A stretch of DNA of 64,000 nucleotides from a bacterium (GCA_021783725.1 JAJXTN010000004.1:12178-76177); one strand, 5' to 3'. Shown: positions 2,754 through 63,791, counted from the stretch's first letter. Translations and numbers: made by a program. The notes: generated by a model from the letters alone, not told the origin.

Positions 2754-2863
2754 AAAATTAAGTTTAACCCAAGAGGGCAAAAAGACAGACGCGACGGGCA
2801 AAAAGACAGCATTTAGCAATTTGCAAATTGCTCATTGCTAATCGTAGTTTGTCACCTGTTGTT

Positions 2864-6038: not shown

Positions 6039-6161
6039 CTATTGTAGCAATCAATTAATATCAATTCGCTATTTCACAATCATTCATTATTATTTCCAGT
6101 TATCAATTAACCTCCCCGTAGTAAGCGCTAGCCATCCAGCCCCTTTTCATCCCAAGGCCAG

Positions 6162-6252
6162 GTCATCCCAGGCTTGACCTGGGATCTAATCGGTTATGGC
6201 GTCCTACGATCCAGCTACATAATATTAGATTCCAGATCAAGTCTGGAATGAC
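6162..6252. repeat. GTCAT...ATGAC double-hairpin element (copy A), followed by two further GTCTGGA(A)ATGAC half-units to 6293
   Basis: GTCATCCCAGGCTTGACCTGGGATC ... AGATTCCAGATCAAGTCTGGAATGAC. It is the inverted counterpart of 55226-55318. Confidence 0.85.
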
Positions 6253-6309
6253 GACGGACGTCTGGAAATGACGTAGAAGAGTCTGGAATGACAGGGAGAA
6301 TTAATTATT

Positions 6310-7191: not shown

Positions 7192-7242
7192 GAATCTATT
7201 CTAACAAGAATAAGTCTTATCACGACAGGCTATACTAGGTGA

Positions 7243-7479
7243 ATGGATAGTCTGCAACAAATAATCGGCGACCGCTTGCCCGCCCAACCACCAGAGGTCA
7301 AAATCATCAAACAATATGTAAAAGTCGAGTTCAACAGCGACGTTGAAGTGATGGTCCGTGATAAAGACATTGTTATTAGCATGAACAGTGCAGCTTTGGC
7401 CAATAGCCTGCGGTTGCGTGGTCAAAAAATTAAGGCTTTGTGTCAAACCGACAAACGATTAACTTTTCGACTCAGCTAA
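7243..7479 (+). CDS. small DUF721/DciA-like protein (tentative)
   Basis: The pattern ...VMVRDKDIVISMNSAALANSLRLRGQKIKALCQTDKRLTFRL resembles the DUF721 signature. It competes with an antisense 81-aa ORF that has no recognisable features. Confidence 0.4.
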   Translation: MDSLQQIIGDRLPAQPPEVKIIKQYVKVEFNSDVEVMVRDKDIVISMNSAALANSLRLRGQKIKALCQTDKRLTFRLS

Positions 7480-8037
7480 AAGCCGGTTAATATCGCTGAT
7501 AGCTTGTTCGGTACTACTAAAACGGACGGCTTTCATGCCAATATCGGTTGCGCCGATGCAGTAACGTTCTTGGTCATCCACAAACAAACAATCCTCAACA
7601 TCAACTCCCAAACGCTCGGCGATGACTTTATAAGCTTCCGGTTGAGGCTTAATATATCCCGATTCATAGGACAGAGCTACTGCATCAAATAAAGCTACTT
7701 GTTCTGGATTAAACATTTCACTTAGCCAGTTCTCGGCGGCATTACTGAGCATGCCGATTTTATATGTTGGCTTCAGAGTCTTTATGTAATTAAACAATTG
7801 GCTATCGGCGACGTGATCCTCAATTTGACGGTGGGCGTCATTGTTTGTCACACCGGCCAACGTAGCGACAGCTTCGATAAAATCATGATAACTTATTAAT
7901 CCAGCGTCGGATTGTTTGTTGAGATCAGTAGCGTCCTGTAGTAATTGTTTATCGTGGCCGAAGTATTTTGATTTAAATGGCAGCCAGCCATCACTAGTTA
8001 GCACACCGAAACAATCAAACACCACGGCTTTAATCAT
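7459..8037 (-). CDS. HAD-superfamily hydrolase
   Basis: Motif I is VVFDCFGVLT, followed by ...MLSNA... and ...LFVDDQERY. Confidence 0.8.
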   Translation of the reverse strand: MIKAVVFDCFGVLTSDGWLPFKSKYFGHDKQLLQDATDLNKQSDAGLISYHDFIEAVATLAGVTNNDAHRQIEDHVADSQLFNYIKTLKPTYKIGMLSNAAENWLSEMFNPEQVALFDAVALSYESGYIKPQPEAYKVIAERLGVDVEDCLFVDDQERYCIGATDIGMKAVRFSSTEQAISDINRLLAESKS

Positions 8038-8070
8038 ATATATATTATAGCCGTTCTAGTTAACCAATAG

Positions 8071-8637
8071 CTACATGGCTATATTATTGGTCAGAGCCGT
8101 GTAGTCTGGAATTTGGGCTTGGAACAGCTCCAGGTTGACACTCAGGTTGCCACCAAAAGTTTTGGTGCCACCACAACTCGATGTCCATAAGTTTTCTAAC
8201 TGGTTGCCATCTTCGATTAGTTCAAATGTGTAGACTTGGCCCAAAGGACAATAACCGGTCGAATCGGCTAGACTAGGCTTGGCATTGCCTAGAGTGAAGC
8301 CAGCTCGCCCGATGGCATGTAAGAATGAATTATAACTATTTTCGGTGTTGTCAAAGGTCTTACTGTCAACAACCGTTCCGTCATAACCGGTAAAATGTTG
8401 ATAAACGGCCTGGTCTCGGCCGACTGTTATGACAATTGAATTATGGTTCTGAGGGGCGGTAATAGGACCGGTAATGGTCAGCCTAGCGACAGCTGTAGTG
8501 TTAGAGAAACTACTCAAAGACCGTGGTGTAGGAGCTTTAGTTTTATTACCACTTTGAGTTAATAGAAATATCAAGGCAATGATCAGCCCGATAGCTATAA
8601 CTAAACCAATGAAGTAGCGCAAGTAATAATTCTTCAT
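8071..8637 (-). CDS. membrane-anchored secreted hypothetical protein
   Basis: N-terminal anchor YFIGLVIAIGLIIALIFLL. I prefer the ATG at 8637 (MKNYY), which follows GAGGAA. Confidence 0.5.
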   Translation of the reverse strand: MKNYYLRYFIGLVIAIGLIIALIFLLTQSGNKTKAPTPRSLSSFSNTTAVARLTITGPITAPQNHNSIVITVGRDQAVYQHFTGYDGTVVDSKTFDNTENSYNSFLHAIGRAGFTLGNAKPSLADSTGYCPLGQVYTFELIEDGNQLENLWTSSCGGTKTFGGNLSVNLELFQAQIPDYTALTNNIAM

Positions 8638-8744
8638 AACTTCCTCTGTACAAATCATATACTAACACTATTAAGCTAATTTTGCAAACCGCTGATCTAT
8701 TTAACGCTGTCTAAAAAACATAAGCGTGAGATAATAATATTTAT

Positions 8745-9185
8745 ATGACTCTGCGCTATGAAACCGGTATCGCTACCCTAATCCAATTCGTCACATTAAC
8801 TATCTTGAATATCGGCACCGGAACCGTTTCGGCGGTAACCGGTTGTACTAATGGCACAAGTGGATGTGTTACTAGCCTTTTTACTTCTGCAGTTTTCTTC
8901 GTATTGATTAGTATCTGGTTCGGTTTCATTTGGATTCTCGGTTTCGCCGCTCAAGAAACGCGCAGTCGACGCCTGGCTCAAGCCTTAATTATCGCTGAAG
9001 TTTTGGTCATCATGGTCGCCACGCTCAATGCCCGCCATCATACCGATATGCTCAACCTCGTTACCAGCTTGTTAGACATTTGTTTGGCGTTGTGGGTTAT
9101 CTACCTGGCGATCCGATTGATGCAATCTAAGGGTGGTCGAGTCGTCAAAAAAATCAAAGTCCGCCAGCGCTTCATCAAACGCTAA
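8745..9185 (+). CDS. hypothetical integral membrane protein (about 4 TM)
   Basis: Four hydrophobic segments and a basic C-terminus. I recognise no family. Confidence 0.5.
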   Translation: MTLRYETGIATLIQFVTLTILNIGTGTVSAVTGCTNGTSGCVTSLFTSAVFFVLISIWFGFIWILGFAAQETRSRRLAQALIIAEVLVIMVATLNARHHTDMLNLVTSLLDICLALWVIYLAIRLMQSKGGRVVKKIKVRQRFIKR

Positions 9186-32399: not shown

Positions 32400-33749
32400 T
32401 TAAAGTTTAATTTTGGCGCCGACGGGCAATTCTTTGGCTTCTTCCCACGTCAAACCATTTGCGCCTAAAGCATGCTTGGTTGCTTCATATATCTGAGCAT
32501 TAGTCGGATGTAAGTTACCGTGACGAATTAGATTAACCTTCTCTTCGTTCCAGATAGTATCACCTTCATGAAGTCGCACAGTGGTCGGCATCGCGGCTTT
32601 TGGTGGGTGAGTTTCTACTCCATGACCAGAGCCCGGAACAGTTGGGCTTGGACTATTACCGTGCCCGCCAGTGTGACCATTGGCCGCTTCTTGGGCACCA
32701 CCACTTTTACTACCGGGGTTACTTAACCCACGACTAGCTAGGTAGACTGTACCGGCGACTACCGCCACTCCGACTACGGCCGCAACTATTTTGCGTCGCT
32801 TGCCTTTTTCGATGTCAAACTTGCCTTTTTCTTGTTCACTGAAGTACTCATGGGTTTTATTTAATCCAAGCGTAACAGCCGCGCCAGTAGCCGCATAAGC
32901 CGACTTAACGCCGCTTTTCACAGTTTTCTTGGGGTGTTTAGAATCATCGAGTTTAACCTCTGGGTGTTCGACAATCGACCCAATAATCAACTCGTCTAAA
33001 CTCTTGTTCAACTTGCTCAGGGCGGCCCGAGCCTTGCCCATAATTCGACGTGTTCGGGCTCGAAGACCTTTCGGTGAAGCATCAATGACGGGCTCACTGT
33101 CAATTAAATCATCTGTTAAATCTGCAGGGGCTTCCTCGGGACTGGATTTTTTGGCTTGAGCCGACAAAACTTCAGCATCATGTTCGCGTAGCATACGGGC
33201 CAAATCAGCAGTTCGGGCCTCAGCTTCGGGCTTTTGAGTAACGGAATAGTACTCAGGCTCTAAGTGTCCGACTGAAAATCCCTCGGCGGCGGCTTCGGCG
33301 ACGGCTTCAGTTTGTAATTTTTTAGCTAACTCGGGGTTACGTTTTAGCCCAATCTCTCCACCATTCTGTAACTTTTTACGATATGAAATACCTTCTACCC
33401 TTTGATTGGCGGCATCACGTTTCGCTCGATAATCATTCATCTCGGATTGATAAATAGCTTCTTTTTCAGCGCCAATTTCTTTACGCGTAAAAGTTTGTTC
33501 TCGAGCGGCCTGCTCTGCTTCCCAAGCCAAAGCACTAGCTTCGAGATCACCATAGGTGGTGTATCCAGCTTCCATAACTTTTTGATGAGTCATTCCTGTG
33601 GCTTTTTGTATGTCTGGTCCGGCGGCAAATTCACGTTCAGGGGTATGAGCAAAGCTAGCCACTTTAGCTAAAACTAAAGGATCTTGTTGAATAACTAGTG
33701 GACTTTCAGTCGATGATAAGACAGTAATTGGAACGGATTCGTGTGACAT
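32400..33749 (-). CDS. single-pass membrane protein with a C-terminal LysM-like domain
   Basis: TM IVAAVVGVAVVAGTVYL, a Gly/Pro linker, then TVRLHEGDTIWNEE...LPVGAKIKL, which resembles LysM. Confidence 0.5.
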   Translation of the reverse strand: MSHESVPITVLSSTESPLVIQQDPLVLAKVASFAHTPEREFAAGPDIQKATGMTHQKVMEAGYTTYGDLEASALAWEAEQAAREQTFTRKEIGAEKEAIYQSEMNDYRAKRDAANQRVEGISYRKKLQNGGEIGLKRNPELAKKLQTEAVAEAAAEGFSVGHLEPEYYSVTQKPEAEARTADLARMLREHDAEVLSAQAKKSSPEEAPADLTDDLIDSEPVIDASPKGLRARTRRIMGKARAALSKLNKSLDELIIGSIVEHPEVKLDDSKHPKKTVKSGVKSAYAATGAAVTLGLNKTHEYFSEQEKGKFDIEKGKRRKIVAAVVGVAVVAGTVYLASRGLSNPGSKSGGAQEAANGHTGGHGNSPSPTVPGSGHGVETHPPKAAMPTTVRLHEGDTIWNEEKVNLIRHGNLHPTNAQIYEATKHALGANGLTWEEAKELPVGAKIKL

Positions 33750-39354: not shown

Positions 39355-42216
39355 TTGAAGCACAAATTCAAAATCAGCCTATTACTATTAGTCGCTTTGG
39401 GTCTGAGCTTTTGGCTGATATTAAATAATCTATTCGTAGCCGCCCTGGTCGCTGATACATCGGTGAATAGCTGGTCATCCCCAAGTATAATCGCTACAAA
39501 GCTACTCGGACCTGCCACCACCAGTCTGAATCACCCCAATCTATATCCGAATGTTGACTGCAGCCAAATAAGTTATCGACGGGCGAGCGATAGCTCGATT
39601 GAATTAGGCTGTTTCTACCGAACTGCTTACGGTCTGATTGATGCCGATAGTTATATGACAATCTTCAACGGCAGCAGTGAAGCACTGCCAATCATTCCCT
39701 ATAATCCCCAAGAGTTACTGGTCGCTTGGCCAGGTACGGCTGATGTTCTGACCTTAGATAGTGCCCTCAATGAAGGCGTCTACTTGGGCATGTATAAGAA
39801 TATTTACACCTCATTGAAAGATCAAAATGGGCTTTTGGGCGAGATTAATGGCAAGAAAGTCAGTCTAGCCCCCGAATATCGATTCCATGATAGCCATGGC
39901 GCCAATTTGATTATCAACCCTCAGACTATCACTTTCTCGTCTAACAGTAGTTGGTTAGTCGCTGAAACGGTCGGCGGGGCTTTCGTCAGAATCAATCTAG
40001 CTACATTAGACGTGAAGCCATTTGCACCTGCCTTCAGTACTATCAGTAGTTCGTCCTTGTTTGATTCGCATTTGGCGATTAGTTCAAGTGGGCGCTACGT
40101 GGCCATCAGTAACACCGTCGCCGACAGCTTTAAAGTCTATGATTTAGCCAGTTGTCAGACTGGCACCAACTACCAGCTATGTCCGTACTTCGACTATAAA
40201 TCCTACGTTAAATCTAAAATATCCAATTTAACATCTATAAAACAAGTTCGTTTCGTCAACGAGGAGTTGCTTAGTTTCGTCGCCAACACGATTAGCGGGT
40301 CGAACAGTTACCTATTAGCGCCACGCTCGGAGATCACCACGCTTAGCAACTATTTGGCACTGGGCGATTCATACACATCTGGCGAAGGTGCTTTCGACTA
40401 CGTCGACGGCACCGATACAACGGTCAACCATTGTCATCTATCACTGCACTCTTATCCATTGCTGATTAGTGGCCAGTTATTTGGCAATGCTGGTGGTCAT
40501 TCGGTAGCCTGTTCGGGTGCTAGAAGCCAAGATATCCTACCATCCAATCCTGACACTTACTCCGGTCAGATTATCCATGCCAGCCAAACAGCTAAGTTAA
40601 GTTCGCTAGATATTAGTCATCTGTTAAGCGACTACACCCCCGGCAACTTGCCACAATCCGACTTTGTTAGCCAGTATCAACCAGAAGTTTTGACCGTATC
40701 AGTCGGCGGCAATGATATTGGATTCGGTAACATGCTGGTGAACTGCGTAATGCCCCATTGGTCTCGATATACAAGTGATAACGTCTGCTATAACAGCTAC
40801 GAGGATCGGCTAGAGGTTATAAAATTGATCGACCGAACCGTTCCAACGTGGACCAATATATTCAAACAACTTCAAGCTAAATCGCCGTTAAGCCAAATAT
40901 ATGCCATTGGCTACCCCCAAATCGCCTACGACAAAGGACAATGCGCACTTAACGTTCAATTAAACAAAAGTGAGCTGGAGTTCTCGGCGGAAATTATCGC
41001 TTATCTTAACGGTGCCATTCAGCAGTCGGCCAAACTGGCCGCTATCAGCTATGTCGATATTGCTGATGCTTTATATGGTTATCGGTTATGCGAGAACGCT
41101 AGCTACAACACAGCCGTCAATGGACTAACGGCCGGCAAAGACAACGGATTGTTTGGCTTAAAAATATTGGGTAGGGAGAGCTACCACCCCACTGCTTTTG
41201 GACATTATCTTATTGAATCGACTATTTTGAGACGAACCAATAATTTTCGCTCGCCAATCAGCCCAGAATCGATCATTAATTCCAGCCAAAGCCTGCTCAA
41301 CAGCCCCAAAAGTGGACGAACTGTTCAAACTATCATTCCTGCAACCACCATCTTGCCAGAGATAGTCAACCCCAATACCAGTTATCCAATAGCTATTGAT
41401 GGCCAAACTAATGGTCTGAGACCAGCGACTATATATATGATTGAACTAGACCGACTGACTTCTGGTCAGGCAACCACTGTCATCACCGATTCACTGGGTA
41501 ACATCACTACGACATTTGTCCTACCAGCGGCTAACAGCGGTCCGCATACTGTCGATATCCTTGGCACTAACCAATCAGGTGATTCAATAGACATCACTCA
41601 ACCTATATATGTCACTGCCGGTAGTCTGGATAGCGATGGAGATAGCCTACCGGATACAACCGATTCTTGCCCATTAGCCCGAAACTCTGGCATCGACAGT
41701 GACAATGACGGTATCGATGATATCTGCGACGCCTATATTGGACCAACCTCATCAACTTCAGGCACTACGCCAGTCGGCAGCTCACCACCCGCCACCATTA
41801 CTACAGCCAACGATACAACAACCAGTAATATACCGATTAACCCTATGCCCTCAACCAACCCAGAACCACTAAGCTCATCATCTATAACTGGTAGCCTTGA
41901 GTCGCCTACAAGTGTTACGTCCAAATTGCGCTCACCGTTGTCGACCCGCCAGATTACACCTATCAAAACACCATCGAATAATTTAAATACAGCTTCAACA
42001 ATTGCCCCGAAGCCGATTTCATCTAATAAATTAATCAAAAATCTGATACCGCCGTCCGTGAAACACATCACCATGAGTAGCTGGTTGATCTATACAGTCT
42101 GGATTTCTACCTATCTGGTAGGCCTATTGCTCGGGCTTTGGGTAGCTTACCGAATTATTGCCTACGCCAGACGACGATCACACCGCAATAGACCGAGACA
42201 ACTAGCTATGGGGTAG
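39355..42216 (+). CDS. large surface protein with an SGNH/GDSL hydrolase domain, Ca-binding-type Asp repeats and a C-terminal TM anchor
   Basis: Signal peptide; LALGDSYTSGEG (block I), ACSGA (block II), VSVGGNDIGF (block III), SYHPTAFGH (block V); DSDGDSLPDTTDSCP...DSDNDGIDDICD; an STP-rich linker; a TM followed by the RRRSHRNRPR tail. Confidence 0.7.
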   Translation: MKHKFKISLLLLVALGLSFWLILNNLFVAALVADTSVNSWSSPSIIATKLLGPATTSLNHPNLYPNVDCSQISYRRASDSSIELGCFYRTAYGLIDADSYMTIFNGSSEALPIIPYNPQELLVAWPGTADVLTLDSALNEGVYLGMYKNIYTSLKDQNGLLGEINGKKVSLAPEYRFHDSHGANLIINPQTITFSSNSSWLVAETVGGAFVRINLATLDVKPFAPAFSTISSSSLFDSHLAISSSGRYVAISNTVADSFKVYDLASCQTGTNYQLCPYFDYKSYVKSKISNLTSIKQVRFVNEELLSFVANTISGSNSYLLAPRSEITTLSNYLALGDSYTSGEGAFDYVDGTDTTVNHCHLSLHSYPLLISGQLFGNAGGHSVACSGARSQDILPSNPDTYSGQIIHASQTAKLSSLDISHLLSDYTPGNLPQSDFVSQYQPEVLTVSVGGNDIGFGNMLVNCVMPHWSRYTSDNVCYNSYEDRLEVIKLIDRTVPTWTNIFKQLQAKSPLSQIYAIGYPQIAYDKGQCALNVQLNKSELEFSAEIIAYLNGAIQQSAKLAAISYVDIADALYGYRLCENASYNTAVNGLTAGKDNGLFGLKILGRESYHPTAFGHYLIESTILRRTNNFRSPISPESIINSSQSLLNSPKSGRTVQTIIPATTILPEIVNPNTSYPIAIDGQTNGLRPATIYMIELDRLTSGQATTVITDSLGNITTTFVLPAANSGPHTVDILGTNQSGDSIDITQPIYVTAGSLDSDGDSLPDTTDSCPLARNSGIDSDNDGIDDICDAYIGPTSSTSGTTPVGSSPPATITTANDTTTSNIPINPMPSTNPEPLSSSSITGSLESPTSVTSKLRSPLSTRQITPIKTPSNNLNTASTIAPKPISSNKLIKNLIPPSVKHITMSSWLIYTVWISTYLVGLLLGLWVAYRIIAYARRRSHRNRPRQLAMG

Positions 42217-42484: not shown

Positions 42485-42574
42485 TTATATAGTGTAACCC
42501 AGTAACAGGGCATGTGGAAAAATGCTTGAATAAATTTAGTATTGTATTTTACGGCTTTCGACTACAATGAGTTC

Positions 42575-43753
42575 ATGCTTTGGATTCGAAATGGAGTTGT
42601 TTACTTTCTGTCGGTAATTTTGTTCCTGTGTTTGCTAGCTGGCGCGGCTGCTACCAGTATTAATATTGCTGGTGCTCATCCCGACAAAATCGAATCTTGG
42701 CTATCACAAAGTGGCCTGTACACCAGCATCGTCAACACAGCAATCAAACAAGCTCAAACCTCTACTAATTCCAACGGTAACAGTGGTGTTTTGCTAAGCG
42801 ATCCAGCAGTCCAACAAGCCGCCAAAACAGCCTTCACGACCGATTTATTACGAACCAGCGTTAATACCATCATCAACAGTAATTACGCCTGGCTAGAAGG
42901 CAAAACCGCCAAACCGCTTTTCTCAGTCGATTTAACAACCGCCAAACAGACATTCGCTCAACTTATCGGCGACAGCGTCACTAAACGTTTAGCCAGTTTA
43001 CCGGTTTGCACTCTAGCCCAAGCTGTTAGTCTAAAAAATTATGATCCGTTAACTGTTTTCTGTCGTCCAGCAATTCTCGACCCAACTACCGCCGGGACAA
43101 CCGTCACTAATCAAATATTGACCAGTGACGGTTTCTTGAGCAACCCAGTCATTACCGCCGATACCATCGATCCTAACACTGGCACCAATGGTAGCGAAGC
43201 TTATTATGTTAGGTTCTCCTATGCGCCCAAGGTCTATCAGTCAGCCACCAAGCTACCATTCGCTATCGGCGCCTTAGGTTTGTTATGTGCTGTCGGCGTG
43301 ATATTCATATCGGCCCGTAAGCGCAAAGGCCTCCACCGCGTCGGCCTAGTGTTGACCTACGCCGGTATAATCCTGATTACAACTCGTTTTGTATCCGATT
43401 ACGTTCTAAAACAGATTGAAAAACAAGTATTCAACAACTCCTCAACTGGGGATTTGCAACAATCACTAACGGCTTTTGCGCATCTAGTTGAAAATCAATT
43501 AGTAAAAATTAACATGTACTTCGGTATCGCTTACCTTGCTCTAGCCGCCTTAATATTCATCACGCTAATGATCGTTAAAGGCAATAAAGTCAAAACACCG
43601 CAGACCGTTAAGTCCAGCGACAACAGCCAAGCTCCAGCCGAACCACCAGCTTCATCAACCGACAGCGTTACGGCCACAACAACTAATCCAGCAACGCCAG
43701 TTTATAAATCACCTACTAAACCCAAATCCAACAAACCCCGTTTGATTCAATAA
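42575..43753 (+). CDS. hypothetical membrane protein (N-terminal TM, large ectodomain, 3 C-terminal TM, STP-rich tail)
   Basis: Called from the hydrophobicity pattern. I prefer the ATG at 42575. Confidence 0.5.
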   Translation: MLWIRNGVVYFLSVILFLCLLAGAAATSINIAGAHPDKIESWLSQSGLYTSIVNTAIKQAQTSTNSNGNSGVLLSDPAVQQAAKTAFTTDLLRTSVNTIINSNYAWLEGKTAKPLFSVDLTTAKQTFAQLIGDSVTKRLASLPVCTLAQAVSLKNYDPLTVFCRPAILDPTTAGTTVTNQILTSDGFLSNPVITADTIDPNTGTNGSEAYYVRFSYAPKVYQSATKLPFAIGALGLLCAVGVIFISARKRKGLHRVGLVLTYAGIILITTRFVSDYVLKQIEKQVFNNSSTGDLQQSLTAFAHLVENQLVKINMYFGIAYLALAALIFITLMIVKGNKVKTPQTVKSSDNSQAPAEPPASSTDSVTATTTNPATPVYKSPTKPKSNKPRLIQ

Positions 43754-51449: not shown

Positions 51450-52151
51450 CTAGAAACGGATTCGGTCCATCAGCCGATCAATAGCGTCGTGGCTACGTTC
51501 TTCGAACGGCAGACGTGGCGTCAATATCTCGACAATCTGGTCAGATTGGTCGGCAGAGAAGTATATCGCCCTTAACGGCGAGAATCGTTTCAGGGGCATG
51601 AAAACCACGCTCATGAACGCACCTTCTTCGAGTATCGAAAAAGATCTGAACTCATCATATGGGTAATGTTTATCACCGATATCTACACCTGAACTACTCA
51701 ATTTATAGTGTTGCTCATTGGGCTGTCTAGATGCGTAATAACCCAGTAGCACCGCTCCGAAGATAACAAAGCCGGCGGTAATGAAGTCTTTGGTTAGAAA
51801 ATATAGAACCACCGAAACAACTATCGCCCCACCAGCTAAGGCACCGTACCAGCCCCGGGTTTTCTGATGAGAAATATACTCTGAGGCTGTCCAAGTGACC
51901 GAAACGTCTGTCTGATCTAGTTGAGTCGACTTGTCTTCGTGATAAAAGTTTGGCTCACCAGTTTCAGGACTAGCGGGTTGGCTGGATGTAGCAACTGGCG
52001 GCTGAGGAGCTGGTGGCAGCTCGGCAGGCGAGGCCGTAGCCGGCTCTTGAGTAGTTGGAGTTGTAGCGCCCGGTGAAACAACTACTCCTGGCAAATTATT
52101 AACTGCCGGTTGATCGTTCTGAGCACCATCTTGATTATCTGGCATAAGCAT
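51450..52151 (-). CDS. hypothetical 2-TM membrane protein with a Pro-rich N-terminus
   Basis: Called from the hydrophobic hairpin GALAGGAIVVSVVLYFL / AGFVIFGAVLLGYY. The start codon is uncertain. Confidence 0.5.
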   Translation of the reverse strand: MLMPDNQDGAQNDQPAVNNLPGVVVSPGATTPTTQEPATASPAELPPAPQPPVATSSQPASPETGEPNFYHEDKSTQLDQTDVSVTWTASEYISHQKTRGWYGALAGGAIVVSVVLYFLTKDFITAGFVIFGAVLLGYYASRQPNEQHYKLSSSGVDIGDKHYPYDEFRSFSILEEGAFMSVVFMPLKRFSPLRAIYFSADQSDQIVEILTPRLPFEERSHDAIDRLMDRIRF

Positions 52152-52194
52152 TATTGTACCGTACCGCAACGATTCGACCCAAAAAGCTTATATA

Positions 52195-54784: not shown

Positions 54785-54877
54785 TGGCGGAGAGGGAGGG
54801 ATTTGAACCCTCGCGGGGGATTGCTCCCCCCTATCGATTTAGCAAACCGACCCCTTCAGCCACTTGGGTACCTCTCC
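54785..54877 (-). tRNA. tRNA-Ser (anticodon GCU)
   Basis: Acceptor GGAGAGG/CCTCTCC, anticodon loop TTGCTAA, a long variable arm, T loop TTCAAAT and encoded CCA. Confidence 0.9.
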
Positions 54878-54921
54878 GTATCTGTTCGAGCAACCGTGTT
54901 ATTGTAACTCGTATTTTAATC

Positions 54922-55011
54922 TGGCGGAAGGGGTGGGATTCGAACCCACGGTACCATTGCTGGCACGACGGTTTTCAAGACCGTTTCCATCGACCACTCG
55001 GACACCCTTCC
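54922..55011 (-). tRNA. tRNA-Ser (anticodon UGA)
   Basis: Acceptor GGAAGGG/CCCTTCC, anticodon arm ACGGT-CTTGAAA-ACCGT, a long variable arm and encoded CCA. Confidence 0.9.
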
Positions 55012-56226: not shown

Positions 56227-56706
56227 ATGGCGCGACGTAATCGCGATGACGATTTATTACTCGAAGAAGACGAACTAACTGCGGCTTTTTTGGGTGATGA
56301 TGATCTGAGTATGGCTACACAGGCCGGTGAGCCAACAGCTACACCAGCCGTTGAAGATGAGTGGGACGAGGACGAAAGCGTACCTGGACAGCTCGCTGTT
56401 GATGTATTCGAGACTCGTGAAAAACTAGTCGTTAAGGCCCGCACCGCTGGTGTCAACAAGAGTGATTTGGATGTCAGTATTTCTGATAACCAATTAACGA
56501 TTCGCGGCACTTTGAGTAGTGGCACCGAAGACGGTGTCGAGAACTACTTCCTGCAAGAATGTTACTGGGGTGAATTCTCACGAACTATCGCTTTGCCAGT
56601 ACCAGTCAAGGAAGAAGAGATTGAGGCCGTCCTTAAAGATGGTGTGTTAACCATAAGCTTTGGTAAGCTCCAACAAGATACCATCAAGAAGATTCAAGTC
56701 TTGTAG
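56227..56706 (+). CDS. Hsp20/alpha-crystallin small heat-shock protein
   Basis: LAVDVFETREKLVVKARTAGV... FSRTIALPVPV...AVLKDGVLTISF. GGAGGG lies 8 nt upstream of the ATG. Confidence 0.9.
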   Translation: MARRNRDDDLLLEEDELTAAFLGDDDLSMATQAGEPTATPAVEDEWDEDESVPGQLAVDVFETREKLVVKARTAGVNKSDLDVSISDNQLTIRGTLSSGTEDGVENYFLQECYWGEFSRTIALPVPVKEEEIEAVLKDGVLTISFGKLQQDTIKKIQVL

Positions 56707-56727: not shown

Positions 56728-56755
56728 AATACCCCCTCGATTTTGAGGGGGTATT
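56728..56755. terminator. bidirectional rho-independent terminator (hsp20 and the pilin operon)
   Basis: AATACCCCCTC-gatttt-GAGGGGGTATT, flanked by an A-run and a T-run. Confidence 0.75.
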
Positions 56756-56774: not shown

Positions 56775-57203
56775 CTAAGCCGTTAAGCCAGTGTTGCTAG
56801 CTGTAGTCAACACGAAGTGAACGATGAATTGAGCTAGAGCGACAATCAATAGTCCAATGATCGCGTAGATCAAAGTATTCTTGGCGCCAGACACGTGTCC
56901 GCTGTCACCACCGGAAGTAATATATTTGAATCCGCCCCAGATAACCATAATAACGGCCACGATACCGACAATGATTGAGAACACATTAACGATCTGTGAT
57001 GCAATGTGCGCAAATGAACCATTAGCTGTTGTGGTCGTACAGCCTGAAGAACTACCCCCCGTAGCCGTATTTGTGCCTGTACATAGACTAGTGTTGATAT
57101 TGTCCGCAACTGCTACACCAGCTAGGCCAGGCACCAAGCCCGGAGCCAAGAGGGATACGCTAGCGATGAGTACGAAAATTGATTTTTTAATTTTGCCGAT
57201 CAT
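56775..57203 (-). CDS. VirB2/TrbC-type T4SS pilin-like protein, paralog 6 of 6 in transcription order
   Basis: Leader, 2 Cys, TM1, YITSGGDSGHVSGAKNTLIYAIIGLLIVALAQFIVHFVL. Confidence 0.7.
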   Translation of the reverse strand: MIGKIKKSIFVLIASVSLLAPGLVPGLAGVAVADNINTSLCTGTNTATGGSSSGCTTTTANGSFAHIASQIVNVFSIIVGIVAVIMVIWGGFKYITSGGDSGHVSGAKNTLIYAIIGLLIVALAQFIVHFVLTTASNTGLTA

Positions 57204-57264
57204 TTTTACCTTTCTTTAGTATGTTTAACTTATATCATAGCACCCCGTTACAGGGCAAGTACAC

Positions 57265-57687
57265 TTAAACACCTTGGGCCGTAGTCAGAACAAAGTGGAC
57301 AATGAACTGAGCTAGGGAAGCAATGAACAAACCAATAATCGCATAGATTAAGGCATTTTTAGCTTTAGTGATTTTGCCACTGTCACCACCGGAAGTGATA
57401 TACAAGAAACCAGCATAAACTATCATGATGACCGCTACTACACCGACAGCGTAACTAATAATCTTGACTATCGATACGATTAAACTGTCGACACCAGAAG
57501 TGCTACAGCTAGCGCCAGTCTGATTAATGCCTCCTAACACCTGGCCTTGGGCGGTTGTATTCTGAATACAAGCAGGCCCTGGCGCTGGGGTTGTTGATGG
57601 TGCGGCATAGGCCGAGCCAGCCCCGATTATAAACGGCACGAAAATCATGGCTAGTGTCACGAACATTTTGGAAAATATTTTATTCAA
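57265..57687 (-). CDS. VirB2/TrbC-type T4SS pilin-like protein, paralog 5
   Basis: Signal peptide ...GSAYAAP, 2 Cys, TM1, YITSGGDSGKITKAKNALIYAIIGLFIASLAQFIVHFVL. The track start is TTG, so the true start is uncertain. Confidence 0.7.
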   Translation of the reverse strand: MNKIFSKMFVTLAMIFVPFIIGAGSAYAAPSTTPAPGPACIQNTTAQGQVLGGINQTGASCSTSGVDSLIVSIVKIISYAVGVVAVIMIVYAGFLYITSGGDSGKITKAKNALIYAIIGLFIASLAQFIVHFVLTTAQGV

Positions 57688-57701
57688 GTCTTTTACGTCT
57701 C

Positions 57702-58076
57702 CTATAATTTACTTACTACAAAATCGATAATAAAAGTACCGGCGATGATGATGACCAGCCCAATGGCGGCGTTAAAGATGGTATTCCGAGCTTTGGCTAC
57801 GCCAGCGCTATCGCCCCCCGAAGCCACCATTTTGAAACTGCCAATCAGTATAAAGATAACAGCCGCCGCGCCAGCCACGAAAGCCAACAGATTAGTAATC
57901 TTGGCAATAATGCCGTTACTGCCCAATATTGCCGTGTCGCCCTGTTGACTACAGACCGCCGAGCTGGCAGTAGTCGTGTCGCAGACAGGTGCAAAAGGGC
58001 TCCAGGCGAATACCGGTTGGGCTTGTCCAACTATAACGACCAAGAATGCGGCTAGAAGTATAAGTTTTTTCATCAT
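57702..58076 (-). CDS. VirB2/TrbC-type T4SS pilin-like protein, paralog 4
   Basis: Signal peptide ...AQPVFAW, 2 Cys, TM1, MVASGGDSAGVAKARNTIFNAAIGLVIII. The start overlaps the stop of the upstream gene by 1 nt. Confidence 0.7.
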   Translation of the reverse strand: MMKKLILLAAFLVVIVGQAQPVFAWSPFAPVCDTTTASSAVCSQQGDTAILGSNGIIAKITNLLAFVAGAAAVIFILIGSFKMVASGGDSAGVAKARNTIFNAAIGLVIIIAGTFIIDFVVSKL

Positions 58077-58354
58077 TACAGTTTCCCCGCTACGAAAGCG
58101 ACTATGGCTTCAGCGAAGATCGCTACCGCCACTCCTACCAAAGCATAAAGTATACCCTCGCGAGCCTGGGCGGCTCTCTGAGGATCGCCATTAGAGGTTA
58201 TATATCTTAATCCGGAAAGAGTAATCATTAGTAAAGCAATCGCTCCCACCAAGCCAAAAACTACGGCTAAAACATTGGCAATAACCGAAGTTGAAGCACT
58301 AGCTTGAGGTAGGCAAGATAGATTGGCACAGCTGGCGGCAAATATTGTAATCAT
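58076..58354 (-). CDS. VirB2/TrbC-type T4SS pilin-like protein, paralog 3 (short N-terminus)
   Basis: 2 Cys, TM1, YITSNGDPQRAAQAREGILYALVGVAVAIF. Confidence 0.65.
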   Translation of the reverse strand: MITIFAASCANLSCLPQASASTSVIANVLAVVFGLVGAIALLMITLSGLRYITSNGDPQRAAQAREGILYALVGVAVAIFAEAIVAFVAGKL

Positions 58355-58355
58355 T

Positions 58356-58730
58356 TTAAGCTCCTAAAGTTGTTCCTAAGAATGTGACGACACCGATAGC
58401 TACTATAGCAATCGCCATGCCAATCAGGGCGTTAATCAATGTTTTTAGGGCTTTGGATGTCTGCTCCGGATTGCCCTGACTCGTCAAGTAGATGAAGCTA
58501 GCGTAAATAACATAAGCCACAGCCGCCATACCGGCAATTCTCAATAAATCGTCAATTAACGCCAGCAGTACCAAAGGTATATCACTACCCGAAGCGGCCG
58601 TCGGCATGATCTGAAAAGTATCCACATTACAAGTAGTTGGATTTAATTTTAGATATTGATACCACGGTATTAAACCAAAAAATGTTGGTTTACAGTTGGT
58701 GGCGGCAATAAGAGTGATGATATTAAACAT
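58356..58730 (-). CDS. VirB2/TrbC-type T4SS pilin-like protein, paralog 2
   Basis: 2 Cys, TM1, YLTSQGNPEQTSKALKTLINALIGMAIAIV. Confidence 0.65.
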   Translation of the reverse strand: MFNIITLIAATNCKPTFFGLIPWYQYLKLNPTTCNVDTFQIMPTAASGSDIPLVLLALIDDLLRIAGMAAVAYVIYASFIYLTSQGNPEQTSKALKTLINALIGMAIAIVAIGVVTFLGTTLGA

Positions 58731-59222
58731 TTAGCCTCCAGAGTTTAAAAAGCCGCCAGGGATAATGAATTGGATGAAGGCGTACAAGAAAATATATGCC
58801 ACAATCGCGATGATAGTATTACGAATCCGAGCTTTGGCGGCCGACACTTTCTGTGGATCGCCAGCCGAAGCGGTATATTGGATACCAGCCATAATTAAGG
58901 AGATGACCGCTATCAAGGCTAGCAACACCGACAATAGATTAATCGCGGGTGTTAGATATGCCTTGACCAAGTTACAGCTGTTTTGCGTACAACCAGTAGA
59001 TGCCGGGTCAGCGACCGATTTACATAAATCACTGCCAGTACAGCTAGGGCAGGTACCCGAAGTCTGGGGGTCGCAGGCTGTAGTTTTGGAAGTTGCAGTC
59101 GTGGTTGTACTGCTGGTTGTGTTTGGTGATGTGGCTGCATAGATCAAACCAGTCGATGAAGACAACGCCAGTATCACCATAATCATGCTGTTGCTGATAA
59201 ATCTTCGTATAGTTTTCATCAT
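58731..59222 (-). CDS. VirB2/TrbC-type T4SS pilin-like protein, paralog 1 (first gene of the operon)
   Basis: Signal peptide, a Thr-rich segment with 6 Cys, TM1, YTASAGDPQKVSAAKARIRNTIIAIVAYIF. Confidence 0.65.
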   Translation of the reverse strand: MMKTIRRFISNSMIMVILALSSSTGLIYAATSPNTTSSTTTTATSKTTACDPQTSGTCPSCTGSDLCKSVADPASTGCTQNSCNLVKAYLTPAINLLSVLLALIAVISLIMAGIQYTASAGDPQKVSAAKARIRNTIIAIVAYIFLYAFIQFIIPGGFLNSGG

Positions 59223-59423
59223 ATTAGACAGACCTAGTAACTTTAGTTATTAGAATTAACATAATTATAGCCGCCCAACGCCAACGATTTTCGTCCGGCC
59301 AATTTTAAACGATTTTTGTTATTTGTAATCTGTAACATTTGATTTGATTATACCCCTATAACATATTTGAGCAAATTTAATTTCTTTACGGTTTTGCTTT
59401 TAGAGATTACCATATATAGAATT

Positions 59424-62400
59424 ATGGTTGTGGGTAATAAGATAAAAATCCAACGCTACATAATTATTGCGTGCTTGCTAGTCTTTGGACTCGGCATTTT
59501 CGTGGCGTCCGTCCCACTGCCCGCCACTGCGGCCACAAACTTCAACTTCGTTGATTCTAATTTTAATCAAAGCACAATTATACCCGGCAACACTACTAGA
59601 TTTAAGTTCATTAATCCGTTCACGATTGTCGACATGGGCACACCAATCAACTGTCAAGCTAGTAACACCCCGACCAATGGCGCTAGCACTTGTGCTATTT
59701 ATTCCACTTCGGCCTCAAACTACATCGCTGACGACAAGAATGGAAGCGGTTTTTATTGGTATTGGCCGGGGGCTAACGGCGGCAGTGTTTTGGCTAGCCC
59801 TACCCATGGAGTATGTCAAGGCGCTTTAGTATTAGGTTTTAACGGCAGTACTGCCGCCACCCTTTATGCAGTACAGCCAACAACAGGTAATGGTGATACT
59901 AGTTGCATAGTTACCAATGGTAAAACCAGTCTCGATCCGACAAAAGTGACTGGACGCCAGCCATTTATAATCTCTGGTGCGGTTAGCGCTGGCAGGAACA
60001 CTTCTGGAACGAGCACAATCAACCCAGACACCATGGGAGCAATCAACAACGAAGGCGTGACCATTGGTAGCGATTGGGGTGTATTAAGGGCTATGGCGAC
60101 TTTCTTGAGCTGGAAAAGCCCTGACGAGCTTGATAGCATGTTTGGCCAAACACTAAGTCGTCTAGCGCCGTCAAAAGCTTATGACTATTTCGTCCAGCAC
60201 GCGCCAAGTCAATACACAGCCGGTTATAACCTATACACCAATACTGCCAATTTACCGGCCGGTTGTACTAAAACCGATGGTCAGACGGTTGCCGCTGTAG
60301 TGGCCGTATCTCCAAGCAATGTCACTCAAGGCACAATACTGCACTGGGATTCTGTCAAGAAAAAATACGATACTACATGGGATGGTAGCAAACAGACTTG
60401 TATCGCCGGGACCGATGGATCTAATGATATTGGCAGTAGCCCTAATATCGCCCTACCCGGTGGCAATAGTTCTGACTCTACTATCGGTTTAGCTGATGTC
60501 GCCAACTATACTGGCGCAGGCAACAGCCCAAACGCTACTGGCACTACTAGTGGTACTGCTGCCGGCTCGGGTACTGGCGCTCCCAGCCTGACTTGTAGTC
60601 CTGGAGCCAATCCGCTTGACTGGTTACTGTGTGCCGCCGTCCAAGGCATGGTCAACATCATCAACCCTTTAGCCAACCTGATATATAGCCAATTATCAGT
60701 CGGCACCTCTGGCAATACCGGCGCACCTGATCAGATATTTGGTAATGGCGCGTCGGCTAAAGATTATAAAAGTGCCTGGGATTCTTTTCGCAACATATCT
60801 CTAGCCTTAATGGTGATTGCCGCTTTGGTAGTGATCATCTCTCAAGCCGCCGGTTTTGAGATACTCGATGCTTACACTATCAGAAAAGTTTTGCCGAGAT
60901 TCCTGATCGTCGCCATATTGATCAATTTGTCTTGGCCACTAATGCAATTCTTCGTACAGCTAACTAATGATTTAGGCTACGGTATCCGCTGGTTGATTTA
61001 TAGTCCGTTCAGCGATCTAAAAGCCAGTTCGCTATCAGGTGGCGGCGACTTCGCGATAACTGTTGTAGCAGGTGGCGCCATCGTCGCGCTAGGAACTTTT
61101 GGTCTACTGAGCTTTGCAGTCACTGGCGCTCTATCCTTATTTGTGGCGTACATTACTCTAGTCTTACGACAAATACTTATCATCTTTTTGATTATTATCG
61201 CGCCGGTCGCCATCGTCGCCTACATTCTGCCCAACACCCAGAAATATTACAAAACTTGGTGGGAATCATTCAGTAAGGCCCTGCTGATGTTCCCGATCAT
61301 CGCCGGCATCATTGCCGCTGGTCATGCTTTTGCGGCAGTCGCCCTAAGCGGGCCCAACGGTGGTAGTGCCATCAATCAATTCATCGCTTTCGCCGCCTAC
61401 TTTGGACCGTACTTCATGATTCCGGCCACTTTCCGTTTCGCCGGTGCCGCTCTAGGCGCCGCCAGTGGCATGATCAACAAACAAGCTCAAGGTGGCTTCA
61501 AAGGCCTCCAAGGCTATCGCAAAAGTCGAGCCAAAGGCAACTGGGAGAAAACTCAATCTGGCAAACGCTTCAAGGGAGGCAATGACGAGAACTTCCGTGG
61601 TCGCATAAACAAAGGCCTGCAAGTTGGTTCGACGATCAATAATGCTGGGGTCGATCCTCGTCGATGGCGGTCTAGAATGCGTGAATCTATCGAACGAGAT
61701 TCTGAGCAACAACGCGACCACATGATGGAAGACAAGGATTACACTTGGAAGGGCGACGACGGACTCAACAAGGCCGCTTCGGCTTCAACCGACAGAAATG
61801 ATCTCAGGCGCCGACTTATGGCCATACCTGACCGATATACTGGTGCTAATGATCCAAACATTGACCGTGATGTTGAAAGAGTCGAGAAACTACGTGAACG
61901 ATATGACCCAGCGGCTTTCAAGCAAGCTACTTTCTTGAGTGCAGTAGCTGGTGGTACAGCCTATACCAAATCAGAAATATGGAAAGCCGCCGCTGATGTT
62001 GCCGGCGACGACAATGGTCTAATGGCAACTCTTGTGGCTAAAGGTCGTAGCGCGGCCATGAGTGCTGGTAGGGCTGACCAAGGCGGTGCCAGCTTTGGTG
62101 AAACATACGCAATTGCCGACAACTATCGAAGAGGTGCTTACGCCGACGTCGACGCCGAAGGCAGGAGCGCAACCGCCGATCTTGAGCTGGCTGGAAAAGC
62201 CCTCGATTCTCAAGGCGCTGGAGTCTTGGCCCACGCCAGCATGAAAACCAGTTCGGTTGAAAGTCTGGTGCCCGTCCTTCAACAAAGAGTTAGGGATGCG
62301 GTAGCGAGTGGTGATCAGGATGAAATTGATAGACAGCTGGCTACTGTCGCTAACCTATACGACACTATGTCAGCTTCGTCTCCCAAGAATGCCAAAGTAT

Positions 62401-62624
62401 TGGCTGATCAAGTATTGCTCTACTCAGTACCGGGTGCTCCGGGTGCAAACGGGGCGGTAACTGTCCAACAACGTGTAGAAGCAAGCAGAATCAACCCTAT
62501 GTTCCAAACTACGAGAAGAGAACTAGGGTTAGGACAATTACCGCCGGGACAAACAGGTCCTGCTGTGCCCGGAGGCCCCGGTCCTATACCAGGAGCGCCG
62601 ACTCAACCCGGTATACGTCCTTAA
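59424..62624 (+). CDS. giant polytopic membrane protein with a VirB6/TrbL-like core
   Basis: Signal/anchor, a ~430-aa ectodomain with 8 Cys, 6-7 TM segments including LVLRQILIIFLIIIAPVAIVAYILPNTQKYYKTWWESF, a ~400-aa charged C-terminal domain and a Pro/Gly tail. I prefer the ATG at 59424 to the TTG at 59367. Confidence 0.6.
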   Translation: MVVGNKIKIQRYIIIACLLVFGLGIFVASVPLPATAATNFNFVDSNFNQSTIIPGNTTRFKFINPFTIVDMGTPINCQASNTPTNGASTCAIYSTSASNYIADDKNGSGFYWYWPGANGGSVLASPTHGVCQGALVLGFNGSTAATLYAVQPTTGNGDTSCIVTNGKTSLDPTKVTGRQPFIISGAVSAGRNTSGTSTINPDTMGAINNEGVTIGSDWGVLRAMATFLSWKSPDELDSMFGQTLSRLAPSKAYDYFVQHAPSQYTAGYNLYTNTANLPAGCTKTDGQTVAAVVAVSPSNVTQGTILHWDSVKKKYDTTWDGSKQTCIAGTDGSNDIGSSPNIALPGGNSSDSTIGLADVANYTGAGNSPNATGTTSGTAAGSGTGAPSLTCSPGANPLDWLLCAAVQGMVNIINPLANLIYSQLSVGTSGNTGAPDQIFGNGASAKDYKSAWDSFRNISLALMVIAALVVIISQAAGFEILDAYTIRKVLPRFLIVAILINLSWPLMQFFVQLTNDLGYGIRWLIYSPFSDLKASSLSGGGDFAITVVAGGAIVALGTFGLLSFAVTGALSLFVAYITLVLRQILIIFLIIIAPVAIVAYILPNTQKYYKTWWESFSKALLMFPIIAGIIAAGHAFAAVALSGPNGGSAINQFIAFAAYFGPYFMIPATFRFAGAALGAASGMINKQAQGGFKGLQGYRKSRAKGNWEKTQSGKRFKGGNDENFRGRINKGLQVGSTINNAGVDPRRWRSRMRESIERDSEQQRDHMMEDKDYTWKGDDGLNKAASASTDRNDLRRRLMAIPDRYTGANDPNIDRDVERVEKLRERYDPAAFKQATFLSAVAGGTAYTKSEIWKAAADVAGDDNGLMATLVAKGRSAAMSAGRADQGGASFGETYAIADNYRRGAYADVDAEGRSATADLELAGKALDSQGAGVLAHASMKTSSVESLVPVLQQRVRDAVASGDQDEIDRQLATVANLYDTMSASSPKNAKVLADQVLLYSVPGAPGANGAVTVQQRVEASRINPMFQTTRRELGLGQLPPGQTGPAVPGGPGPIPGAPTQPGIRP

Positions 62625-62690: not shown

Positions 62691-63791
62691 ATGGCAACAT
62701 ACAAAGTACTGCAAGATATTGAGGCGGAAGACAAGATTCTGGGACCGCTGTCGTTAAGACAGTTCATTTTCGGTCTAATATCGGTCTTCCTGTTATATAT
62801 TAGTTTTCTACTGGTCGGCAAGGGCGTCGGCTTTTTGCTGATAATCACTTTGCCGCCAGCATTATTCACTGGTTTTTTCGCTTTTCCATTTGGCCGTGAT
62901 CAGCCGACCGAAATCTGGGCGCTAGCCAAAATCCGTTTCTATTTCAAGCCCCGCAAACGTCTGTGGGACCAGAGTGGCGTCAAGGAATTAGTGACGATTA
63001 CCGTCCCGAAGAAAATTGAACGGGTACTGACTAACGGTTTATCAGCCAACGAAGTCCAGAGTCGCTTGAGCGCTCTTGCTACCACCATCGACAGTCGTGG
63101 CTGGGCGGTCAAAAACGTTAACGTCAACCTGTATAGCCAGCCAGGCTTAATCGATAGCGTTGAGTCTGACCGACTGATTGACATTAACTCAATTCCTCAA
63201 GAAGTACCGAATTATGATGTTCAAGCTTCTGACGATATACTCGACGAAAACAATAATCCGATTGCGCAACAATTCCAGAGCATGATAAATGCTTCGACCC
63301 AAACGCACCGTCGGCAATTAGTCGACGAGCTGAATAATATTCGAGCCCAACAAGCTCCAACCACCGCGCCACCCAACGACTATTGGTTCATGAATCAACC
63401 GACTCCACCACCCAACCTGCCAGCCGATAAAGCGATGTTCGGTAGTGACCCGGTTGTTCAACCAGGTGCGCCGGTGGGTGACTCATCGGTCGCCCCAACA
63501 GCCGACGAGCAGGCTATTGTTGAACGGTCAAAAGCCCAACATGCCACTCAAAATCAGTCTTACGCCCATCTGCGAACCATTCAACCACTAGGTACGCCTG
63601 CGGTGGCTCAAACTCCAGCACCAACAGATTACGTTCCGGCGCCAACCACCATGACACCACCGCCAGACCCTGCTATACTATCCTTGGCAAACAACGACGA
63701 TTTGAATGTGGCTACTTTAGCCCGCGAAGCCTATAAAGCCAAGAATCCAGATAGGCCTCCCGAGGATGAAGTTGTTATTTCACTCCGCTAA
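62691..63791 (+). CDS. PrgI/VirB3-like membrane protein with a long Pro-rich C-terminal extension
   Basis: MATYKVLQDIEAEDKILGPLSLRQFIFGLISVFLLYISFLL plus a second TM gives the N-terminal signature and two-TM layout of the PrgI family. Confidence 0.6.
   Translation: MATYKVLQDIEAEDKILGPLSLRQFIFGLISVFLLYISFLLVGKGVGFLLIITLPPALFTGFFAFPFGRDQPTEIWALAKIRFYFKPRKRLWDQSGVKELVTITVPKKIERVLTNGLSANEVQSRLSALATTIDSRGWAVKNVNVNLYSQPGLIDSVESDRLIDINSIPQEVPNYDVQASDDILDENNNPIAQQFQSMINASTQTHRRQLVDELNNIRAQQAPTTAPPNDYWFMNQPTPPPNLPADKAMFGSDPVVQPGAPVGDSSVAPTADEQAIVERSKAQHATQNQSYAHLRTIQPLGTPAVAQTPAPTDYVPAPTTMTPPPDPAILSLANNDDLNVATLAREAYKAKNPDRPPEDEVVISLR

Follow-up and report, generated by a model that had tools for sequence, protein, structure and literature searches.

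We report on a stretch of bacterial DNA of 64,000 nucleotides (GCA_021783725.1 JAJXTN010000004.1:12178-76177; hereafter the window), the source of which is an uncultured Saccharimonadales bacterium. Six consecutive open reading frames (ORFs) on its minus strand, running from position 59222 to position 56775 and called P1 to P6 in array order (Table 1), likely encode pilin-like subunits (PF18895) of a chromosomal, monoderm-type type IV secretion system (T4SS), and by gene count, gene order and flanks they would be the counterpart of SEML1_0014-0019 in Southlakia epibionticum ML1 (Se ML1). The array is an instance of a system already published for Saccharibacteria and not a new kind of system. 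An earlier note, made from the sequence alone, had proposed six tandem, translationally coupled pilin paralogs of the VirB2/TrbC type in an ultra-small epibiotic cell of the candidate phyla radiation; the last part of this proposal agrees with the Saccharimonadales relatives of the locus and with its T4SS context.

That the six-gene array is real, and not a chance run of ORFs, is established by two observations: all six products score above the gathering cut-off of the T4SS_pilin family PF18895 (26.6 bits; scores in Table 1), and the six-gene array recurs in 14 of 14 related loci. These loci comprise 13 found by scanning the GTDB representative genomes with an alignment of P5 and P6, together with a close relative (L016), and make 15 when the window is included. 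A custom hidden Markov model detected exactly six pilin ORFs in every one of the 14, with the same size pattern and the same flanks, which is the outcome of the comparison of copy number and synteny that the earlier note had called for. The ORF listing and the raw sequence reproduced exactly the six minus-strand ORFs, the product lengths, the spacing between successive genes (0, 1, -1, 14 and 61 nt from P1 to P6) and the cysteine counts (6, 2, 2, 2, 2 and 2) that had been described, and the quoted strings from the loop and the second helix are present. It also held that only the last two genes are close duplicates, P5 and P6 being 50% identical against 23-37% for the remaining pairs.

Orthology across the 15 loci follows array position. 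For positions 1, 2 and 6, all of the 210 comparisons gave the pilin of the same position as the best match in another locus; for position 3 this was so in 202 of 210, for position 4 in 125 of 210 and for position 5 in 105 of 210. The ortholog alignments gave each position signature motifs of its own. Compared with L016, the ratio of non-synonymous to synonymous substitution rates (dN/dS) lay between 0 and 0.12 per gene (0.115, 0.115, 0.056, 0.079, 0.09 and 0 for P1 to P6), and P6 differed by nine synonymous and no non-synonymous changes. These ratios indicate that every copy is under purifying selection and that none is decaying, decay of the other copies being what the earlier note had named as speaking against its own proposal. 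Orthology and dN/dS show the paralogs to be old, position-specific and individually constrained, and hence non-redundant subunits; we favor this reading, since it fits the evidence better than interchangeable antigenic variants do. P6 is the most conserved paralog, with the highest mean ortholog identity of the six (52%) and 3355 homologues at E <= 1e-5.

All six proteins show two strong hydrophobic segments of about 25-30 residues each in Kyte-Doolittle profiles, separated by a loop of 15-19 residues with 1-4 lysine or arginine residues. The predicted hairpin of two transmembrane (TM) helices with a short polar loop was thus seen by hydropathy in all six proteins, and for P6 also in an AlphaFold2 (AF2) model. 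Built from 42 homologues, this model places a leader helix and a short helix ahead of the hairpin helices 59-96 and 101-137, at a mean predicted local distance difference test score of 70 and with values of 77-86 across most of the hairpin. The N-terminal domains (N-domains) of P3 to P6 contain no lysine or arginine and those of P1 and P2 contain three and two, with 0-1 in the C-terminal tails throughout; this distribution fits an orientation with both termini outside and the loop in the cytoplasm, as in VirB2. Conservation is strongest in the TM helices and not in the soluble regions.

A leader or N-terminal hydrophobic segment had been ascribed to each protein. Sec-type leaders with A-x-A-like end sites are found in P1, P4 (ending VFA ahead of W), P5 (ending AYA ahead of A) and P6, whereas P2 and P3 are without a canonical signal peptide, having short, uncharged N-termini and no longer in-frame start. 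We also considered P2 and P3 as lipoproteins and rejected this, since the residues ahead of the first cysteine are unlike a lipobox and the leaders have only 8-12 residues, none of them basic. P2 nonetheless has a conserved, cysteine-containing N-domain of 50 residues, presumably extracytoplasmic, and 4 of 14 P2 orthologs (L007, L009, L013 and L014) possess a longer N-terminus with a genuine leader. In the ortholog alignments a cysteine pair is conserved at positions 1, 2, 4, 5 and 6, and not at position 3.

Ahead of and behind the common hairpin the paralogs differ. P1 has a Thr/Ser-rich N-domain with its six cysteines after the leader, and a PGG motif at its C-terminus; among its orthologs the N-domain insert ranges from 0 to about 130 aa, and the signature of the position is C-x4-C ahead of the first TM helix together with the C-terminal PGG. 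The N-terminal motif of P2, C...F[FL]GL.PWY.YL...C, is conserved among its orthologs. P3 has an N-terminal tail of 21 residues, and its cysteine pair is not kept in orthologs, which have 0-3 cysteines each. The cysteine pair lies between leader and hairpin in P4, where it is conserved, and in P5, and in P6 it is formed by the conserved Cys41 and Cys55, followed by a hairpin with a nearly invariant second TM helix (AKNTLIYAIVGLIIVALAQFIVHFVL). Some JGI records label homologues of P6 'energy-converting hydrogenase Eha subunit B', 'predicted permease' or 'uncharacterized membrane protein'; these odd names are likely annotation artefacts arising from TM-helix similarity.

Several features of the layout bear on how the genes may be expressed. 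The start codon of P2 directly adjoins the stop of P1, the ATG of P4 overlaps the stop of P3 (TAATG, read from the sequence), and the Shine-Dalgarno-like motifs of P2 (GGAGG, 5 nt before the gene) and P3 (AGGAG, 7 nt before the gene) fall within the 3' end of the gene ahead of each; P5 has AGGAG 12 nt upstream of its start. The array ends at an intrinsic terminator common to it and the convergent Hsp20 gene, the stem of which is a perfect 7-bp G+C-rich hairpin with A and T runs on either side (fold energy -29.7 kcal/mol in a 61-nt context). From the intergenic distances, a single operon ending at this strong bidirectional terminator had been proposed; that description probably simplifies too much, given a conserved promoter-like element in the 61-nt gap between P5 and P6. 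Translational coupling is plausible for P1 to P4, and perhaps P5, whereas P6 probably has its own, putative promoter, as judged from a motif match. An AAAGG ribosome-binding site sits between this element and the P6 start. We found TGNTATAA in the P5-P6 spacer of 12 of the 15 loci, against 0.16 expected from background, and in 11 of those 12 TTGnnn lies 16-19 nt upstream of TGnTATAA; the copy in the P5-P6 gap is the sole match of the full pattern TTGnnn-N16-19-TGnTATAA in the window. Over the whole window TGNTATAA is not enriched (10 found, 12 expected), so that what speaks for the element is that the different loci have it conserved in one and the same place. The spacer preceding the last gene is long in every locus (44-102 nt), and a housekeeping sigma-70 gene (RpoD) is encoded in the window.

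At the other end of the array, the divergent region between P1 and the VirB6-like gene presumably contains promoters for the two operons. Its sequence includes TATAAT hexamers at 47 and 130 nt before the P1 ATG; a convincing -35 element was looked for in this 144-nt region and none was found. Across the related loci TATAGT occurs near the called P1 start in several, with nothing consistent, and the start calls of P1 in these relatives are uncertain.

Table 1. Coordinates of the pilin-like genes, of the elements around them and of the adjoining genes (positions counted from the first nucleotide of the window)
Feature	Coordinates	Strand	Product length	Details
P1, position 1	58731..59222	-	163 aa	PF18895, 30.3 bits
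P2, position 2	58356..58730	-	124 aa	PF18895, 34.0 bits
P3, position 3	58076..58354	-	92 aa	Shortest; PF18895, 48.8 bits
P4, position 4	57702..58076	-	124 aa	PF18895, 35.1 bits
P5, position 5	57265..57687	-	140 aa	TTG start; PF18895, 54.1 bits
P6, position 6	56775..57203	-	142 aa	PF18895, 54.1 bits
Promoter-like element, P5-P6 gap	57230..57258	-		TTGCCC, 18-nt spacer ending TGA (extended -10), -10 hexamer TATAAG
Bidirectional intrinsic terminator	56732-56751			CCCCCTC-AAAATC-GAGGGGG hairpin, called on both strands
Divergent intergenic region	59223..59366			144 nt, between P1 and VirB6-like gene
VirB6-like polytopic membrane protein	59367..62624	+	1085 aa	TM cluster at residues 472-662
PrgI/VirB3-like T4SS component	62691..63791	+	366 aa	PF12666 PrgI, E = 2.4e-11
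Hsp20 small heat-shock protein	56227..56706	+		PF00011, E = 1.5e-17

By its gene content, the T4SS of the locus is of the monoderm type and MPF-FATA-like, as described for Patescibacteria. The VirB6/PrgI operon that had been placed beside the array is present, PrgI being recognized by PF12666 and VirB6 only by way of the homologue in L016. The 1085-aa protein itself gave nothing significant in Pfam, NCBIfam and PDB sequence searches (TrbL E = 0.93, residues 559-678), and its VirB6 label derives from a precomputed match to PF19590 (TrbL_3) in the 78%-identical L016 homologue; the same position is occupied likewise in the related loci. On a contig with an identical PrgI (L001), which carries the locus on past the end of the window, the next genes encode a 293-aa TraC-like/TrsD protein, a 53-aa ORF and a 642-aa VirB4, which scores 357 bits against NF045971 (Firmicutes CD1110 family, cut-off 325) and also matches the VirB4 model of the Mycoplasma integrative and conjugative element (ICE). 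Two large unassigned proteins (901 and 478 aa) lie downstream of VirB4 on continuing contigs. VirB4 is split on L001, the 293-aa TrsD/TraC-like protein (1186-2067) corresponding to the N-terminal part of VirB4 models and the 642-aa protein (2225-4153) to the ATPase domain, and this split agrees with the VirB4 plus TrsD arrangement reported for Patescibacteria (PMC12102498). No VirB5 turned up among the scanned genes of the locus, although the 901-aa and 478-aa proteins are without an assignment. Nor did these scanned genes include a relaxase, and for most Patescibacterial T4SS clusters the literature reports none.

The VirB6-like protein also varies sharply along its length. Identity to its L016 homologue (5707-8925) is about 45%, with many gaps, over residues 1-400, rises to 96% over residues 401-1000 and is about 58% over the last 85, so that the hypervariable part is the N-terminal stretch of about 400 aa, a predicted ectodomain following a signal anchor. 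This mosaic is seen between strains that are otherwise near-identical (365 of 366 residues the same in PrgI, 142 of 142 in P6), and resembles the outcome of allelic replacement, or of diversifying selection, in a surface domain. As a mosaic surface domain, it would make the VirB6-like protein a candidate determinant of host specificity.

Previous reports describe systems to which the array can be compared. In Se ML1 the T4SS pilin array is needed for epibiotic growth (Wang et al. 2023, Cell; PMC10633639; reviewed in PMC12857230). In Table S1 of that report SEML1_0014-0019 appear as six genes in tandem, 399-558 nt long and each scored GD/ES/ES (essential) by transposon sequencing (Tn-seq), and Table S2, in the part considered here, assigns PF18895 to SEML1_0014-0016, 0018 and 0019; SEML1_0020, the Hsp20 counterpart, was also called essential (PMC10633639). 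Both species have six tandem PF18895 genes (132, 185, 103, 126, 127 and 138 aa in Se ML1; 163, 124, 92, 124, 140 and 142 aa here), with the early genes tightly spaced and a long gap before the last (83 nt and 61 nt, respectively). In both, a VirB6-like protein, PrgI, a 293-aa protein and VirB4 are encoded divergently upstream, and Hsp20, ComFC and tRNA-Ser follow downstream. Between PrgI and the array, Se ML1 has two VirB6-like genes and in addition a small ORF, whereas the window has one VirB6-like gene, and essentiality of the array is known for Se ML1 only.

Six copies had been regarded as unusual, which is true when compared with classical T4SSs, but they are the conserved and published norm in Saccharibacteria. 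Quinonero-Coronel et al. (2025, Microb Genom; PMC12102498) described 441 arrays of 2-11 pilin genes in 383 Patescibacteria assemblies, especially in Saccharimonadia, and these are, as here, tandem divergent genes of the PF18895/PF04956 type near virB4. Identity within their arrays averaged about 25% with a maximum of 54%, as against 23-50% here. The array size in that survey is variable, and a role in variation was suggested; the Saccharimonadales clade sampled by us, in contrast, has a fixed number of six with position-specific orthologs. For Nanosynbacter lyticus TM7x, McLean et al. (bioRxiv 10.1101/258137) reported a 'Sec-secreted array' made up of small, VirB2-related proteins with signal peptides, 4-6 in number; elsewhere in the TM7x literature the same genes are termed 'putative effectors', and three of them are up-regulated in stable symbiosis.

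With Agrobacterium VirB2 and RP4 TrbC the array proteins share small size, a signal peptide, two hydrophobic helices with a short basic loop, and genes adjoining homologues of VirB3, VirB4 and VirB6. Canonical loci of that type, however, have one pilin gene and VirB5, whereas six pilin-like genes in a monoderm-type system are found here, and ectodomains with a cysteine pair are not a feature of VirB2. A further likeness is to the Mycoplasma ICE protein Mbov_0395/MMCAP2_0565 (NF045849), a two-TM pilin-like protein of a monoderm MPF-FATA-type T4SS. Against this model (cut-off 40 bits) P1 scores 41.0, and P2 to P6 score 36.2, 29.0, 17.7, 25.4 and 31.0 (E = 4e-9 to 2e-3); one of the six paralogs thus reaches the cut-off. 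The Mycoplasma protein is encoded by a single gene in a mobile element, whereas the system described here is chromosomal. A search against PHROGs returned no matches, and hence no phage link.

From these data a possible mechanism can be put together. Judging from the Sec leaders of P1, P4, P5 and P6, the short N-terminal tails of P2 and P3 and the positive-inside rule, the proteins would insert into the membrane with N- and C-termini outside and the lysine- and arginine-rich loop inside. The cysteine pair of the outward N-domain, conserved at five of the six positions, may be oxidised to a disulfide. Being the most conserved paralog, and with the extended -10 promoter-like element as an additional transcription start of its own, P6 could be an abundant core or major subunit, while the tightly packed P1 to P5 would be accessory or minor subunits, produced in lower and fixed proportions, with differing ectodomains that might initiate, cap or decorate the structure. 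By analogy with VirB2, the split VirB4, PrgI/VirB3 and the VirB6-like protein may then pull the subunits out of the membrane and build from them a short pilus or a wall-spanning conduit to the host bacterium. In gene organisation only, a separately promoted major subunit and an operon of minor subunits, as we infer here, recall type IV pili and the pseudopili of type II secretion; fold and assembly are unrelated, type IV pilins having a single N-terminal helix, a class III signal peptide and PilB/PilC machinery.

Taken to its full extent, this account would hold that the six obligate paralogs form one hetero-oligomeric T4SS appendage, with P6 as separately promoted major subunit and P1 to P5 as translationally coupled minor subunits whose disulfide-bonded ectodomains play VirB5-like tip or adhesin roles, and with the hypervariable VirB6-like ectodomain aiding host recognition. 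We offer this joint claim as a tentative one, which is more likely to fail than to hold in all its parts. If true, it would amount to a major/minor pilin architecture undescribed for any T4SS, and to a physical conduit by which Saccharibacteria feed on their hosts. Going by the comparative results, P6 would be expected to be abundant and P1 to P5 scarce, and each gene to be individually required.

The results should nevertheless be interpreted with some caution, since a number of observations weigh against our interpretation, beginning with the tie to pilus-forming proteins. By profile search the six proteins are members of PF18895. In architecture and context they resemble VirB2, but membership of PF04956 (TrbC/VirB2, cut-off 27.9 bits) could not be demonstrated for them, and the VirB2/TrbC assignment of the earlier note stands in this limited form. 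P5 (27.0 bits, E = 5.4e-6), P6 (24.0 bits, E = 5e-5) and P2 (14.0 bits) stay below that cut-off, and P1, P3 and P4 gave no match to PF04956; the matches of P5 and P6 do span both helices, and about half of the P6 homologues listed carry a precomputed PF04956 match. Comparison by hhalign of the pilin alignments A3 and A1 with nine alphaproteobacterial plasmid VirB2/TrbC sequences gave non-significant probabilities of 3% (E = 0.014) and 0.4%, a weak test in that these alignments were shallow (Neff 2.4-3), and the profile of the six paralogs found no match among PDB sequences even at E <= 10. With Foldseek, the P6 model matched nothing in the PDB except generic helical hairpins, all at E > 1 (chemoreceptor, ATP synthase c, designed TM proteins), which are nonspecific because the fold is too simple to discriminate. 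The relation of the array proteins to pilus-forming VirB2/TrbC is weak. In addition, cryo-electron tomography of TM7x attributes the visible filaments to type IV pili, and no Saccharibacterium has so far been seen to bear a T4SS pilus. Se ML1 is another species with other gene lengths, matched to the window by gene order and by the lengths in Table S1 and not by sequences, and part of the Tn-seq essentiality of its upstream genes could be due to polar effects. Orthology follows position less cleanly for positions 4 and 5 than for the others, their off-position best matches falling mostly on position 6 and, for some of position 4, on position 5. The internal promoter, finally, is a motif match only.

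Part of this evidence could be read in other ways. If the copies were interchangeable alternative major pilins, their tandem amplification and divergence would serve antigenic or host-range variation, as proposed for the VirB2 paralogs of Bartonella and Anaplasma and suggested for Patescibacteria by Quinonero-Coronel et al. (PMC12102498). Highly divergent paralogs within a genome (23-37%, with a literature mean of 25%), outward N-domains that differ in length and cysteine content, at position 1 above all, and the hypervariable ectodomain of the adjoining VirB6-like protein are all in keeping with such a role. The same is true of the synonymous divergence from L016, which is uneven along the array (dS 0.09 for P3 and P6, 0.25 for P4 and 0.35-0.52 for P1, P2 and P5, at an Hsp20/PrgI baseline of about 0.10-0.12) and, in a comparison of two genomes, suggests recombination tracts within it. 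We still regard variation as an unlikely explanation, given that the copy number is six in 15 of 15 arrays, window included, that orthology tracks array position and not genome, that conserved motifs are specific to positions with purifying selection on all copies, and that all six genes are essential in Se ML1, which is unexpected of redundant variants. The fixed number, positional orthology, purifying selection and promoter-like element thus argue against simple antigenic variation, as an incremental refinement of what is known about Patescibacterial T4SSs with a pilin array, which are among the few systems genetically shown to be required for an epibiotic lifestyle.

Canonical VirB2 is needed for substrate transfer independently of pilus formation, as seen in uncoupling mutants of Agrobacterium, and the six proteins might similarly work without an extracellular filament, either building or lining a translocation channel that spans membrane and cell wall, or regulating VirB4/VirB6 as a membrane pool. 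This differs from our preferred reading in the final assembly state only, and would accommodate the general lack of pili in monoderm T4SSs reported in the literature, the failure to see a T4SS filament in TM7x and the generic nature of the structural matches, ATP synthase subunit c among them. We think it quite improbable, however, since signal peptides and conserved ectodomains of 20-60 aa with a cysteine pair point to extracellular exposure, and six distinct subunits seem more than the simple lining of a channel needs. Delivery of the six proteins to the host as small Sec-secreted effectors, following the early TM7x annotation ('six putative effector genes', 'array of small hypothetical proteins with signal peptides'), would account for the N-terminal signal peptides of four of the six and for the up-regulation of three of the TM7x genes in stable symbiosis. 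Two strongly hydrophobic helices after the leader would, however, retain every one of these proteins in the membrane, all six belong to a pilin family, and conservation is greatest in the TM helices; we consider such a function highly improbable. Subunits of a T4SS, non-redundant and exposed on the outside, remain the interpretation that we prefer.

Antisense ORFs over the array (e.g. 58765-59142 and 56881-57219 on the plus strand) are unsupported, lying wholly inside conserved and selected minus-strand pilin genes. The Hsp20 gene is the convergent neighbour of the array in 14 of 14 related loci, and it is conceivable that Hsp20 acts as a chaperone for the pilin-like proteins. As to the origin of the 13 GTDB loci, ten are labelled Saccharimonadales/Saccharibacteria, two carry generic labels and one is assigned to Dormiibacterota. 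The last (L003, DATLRC010000009.1), binned as 'Candidatus Dormiibacterota', has a typical Saccharimonadales six-pilin array with Hsp20, and the contig is probably mis-binned; an NCBI 'Dormibacteraeota' pilin (P0107) is found among the P6 homologues as well.

Other genes of the window encode PolA, DnaG, RpoD, ArgRS, GroEL, MurE, TsaD, ValRS, a P-type ATPase, tRNAs and ComF, and many of its housekeeping families recur in the origin-proximal region of Se ML1 (families were compared throughout, gene order at the T4SS locus only). The only Rfam matches in the window are four tRNAs. Just beyond ComF lie two tandem tRNA-Ser genes with the anticodons GCT and TGA (54785-55011, minus strand), where the equivalent site of Se ML1 has one tRNA-Ser. 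Four sizeable ORFs are without a Pfam family at 1e-4 or 1e-3: 2864-4459 (minus strand, 531 aa), 32400-33749 (minus strand, 449 aa), 42542-43753 (plus strand, 403 aa) and 51450-52169 (minus strand, 239 aa). A protein of 953 aa (39355-42216, plus strand), a size unusual for its family, contains a GDSL lipase/acylhydrolase domain at residues 333-617 and may, as an enzyme secreted or displayed on the surface, attack lipids of the host envelope.

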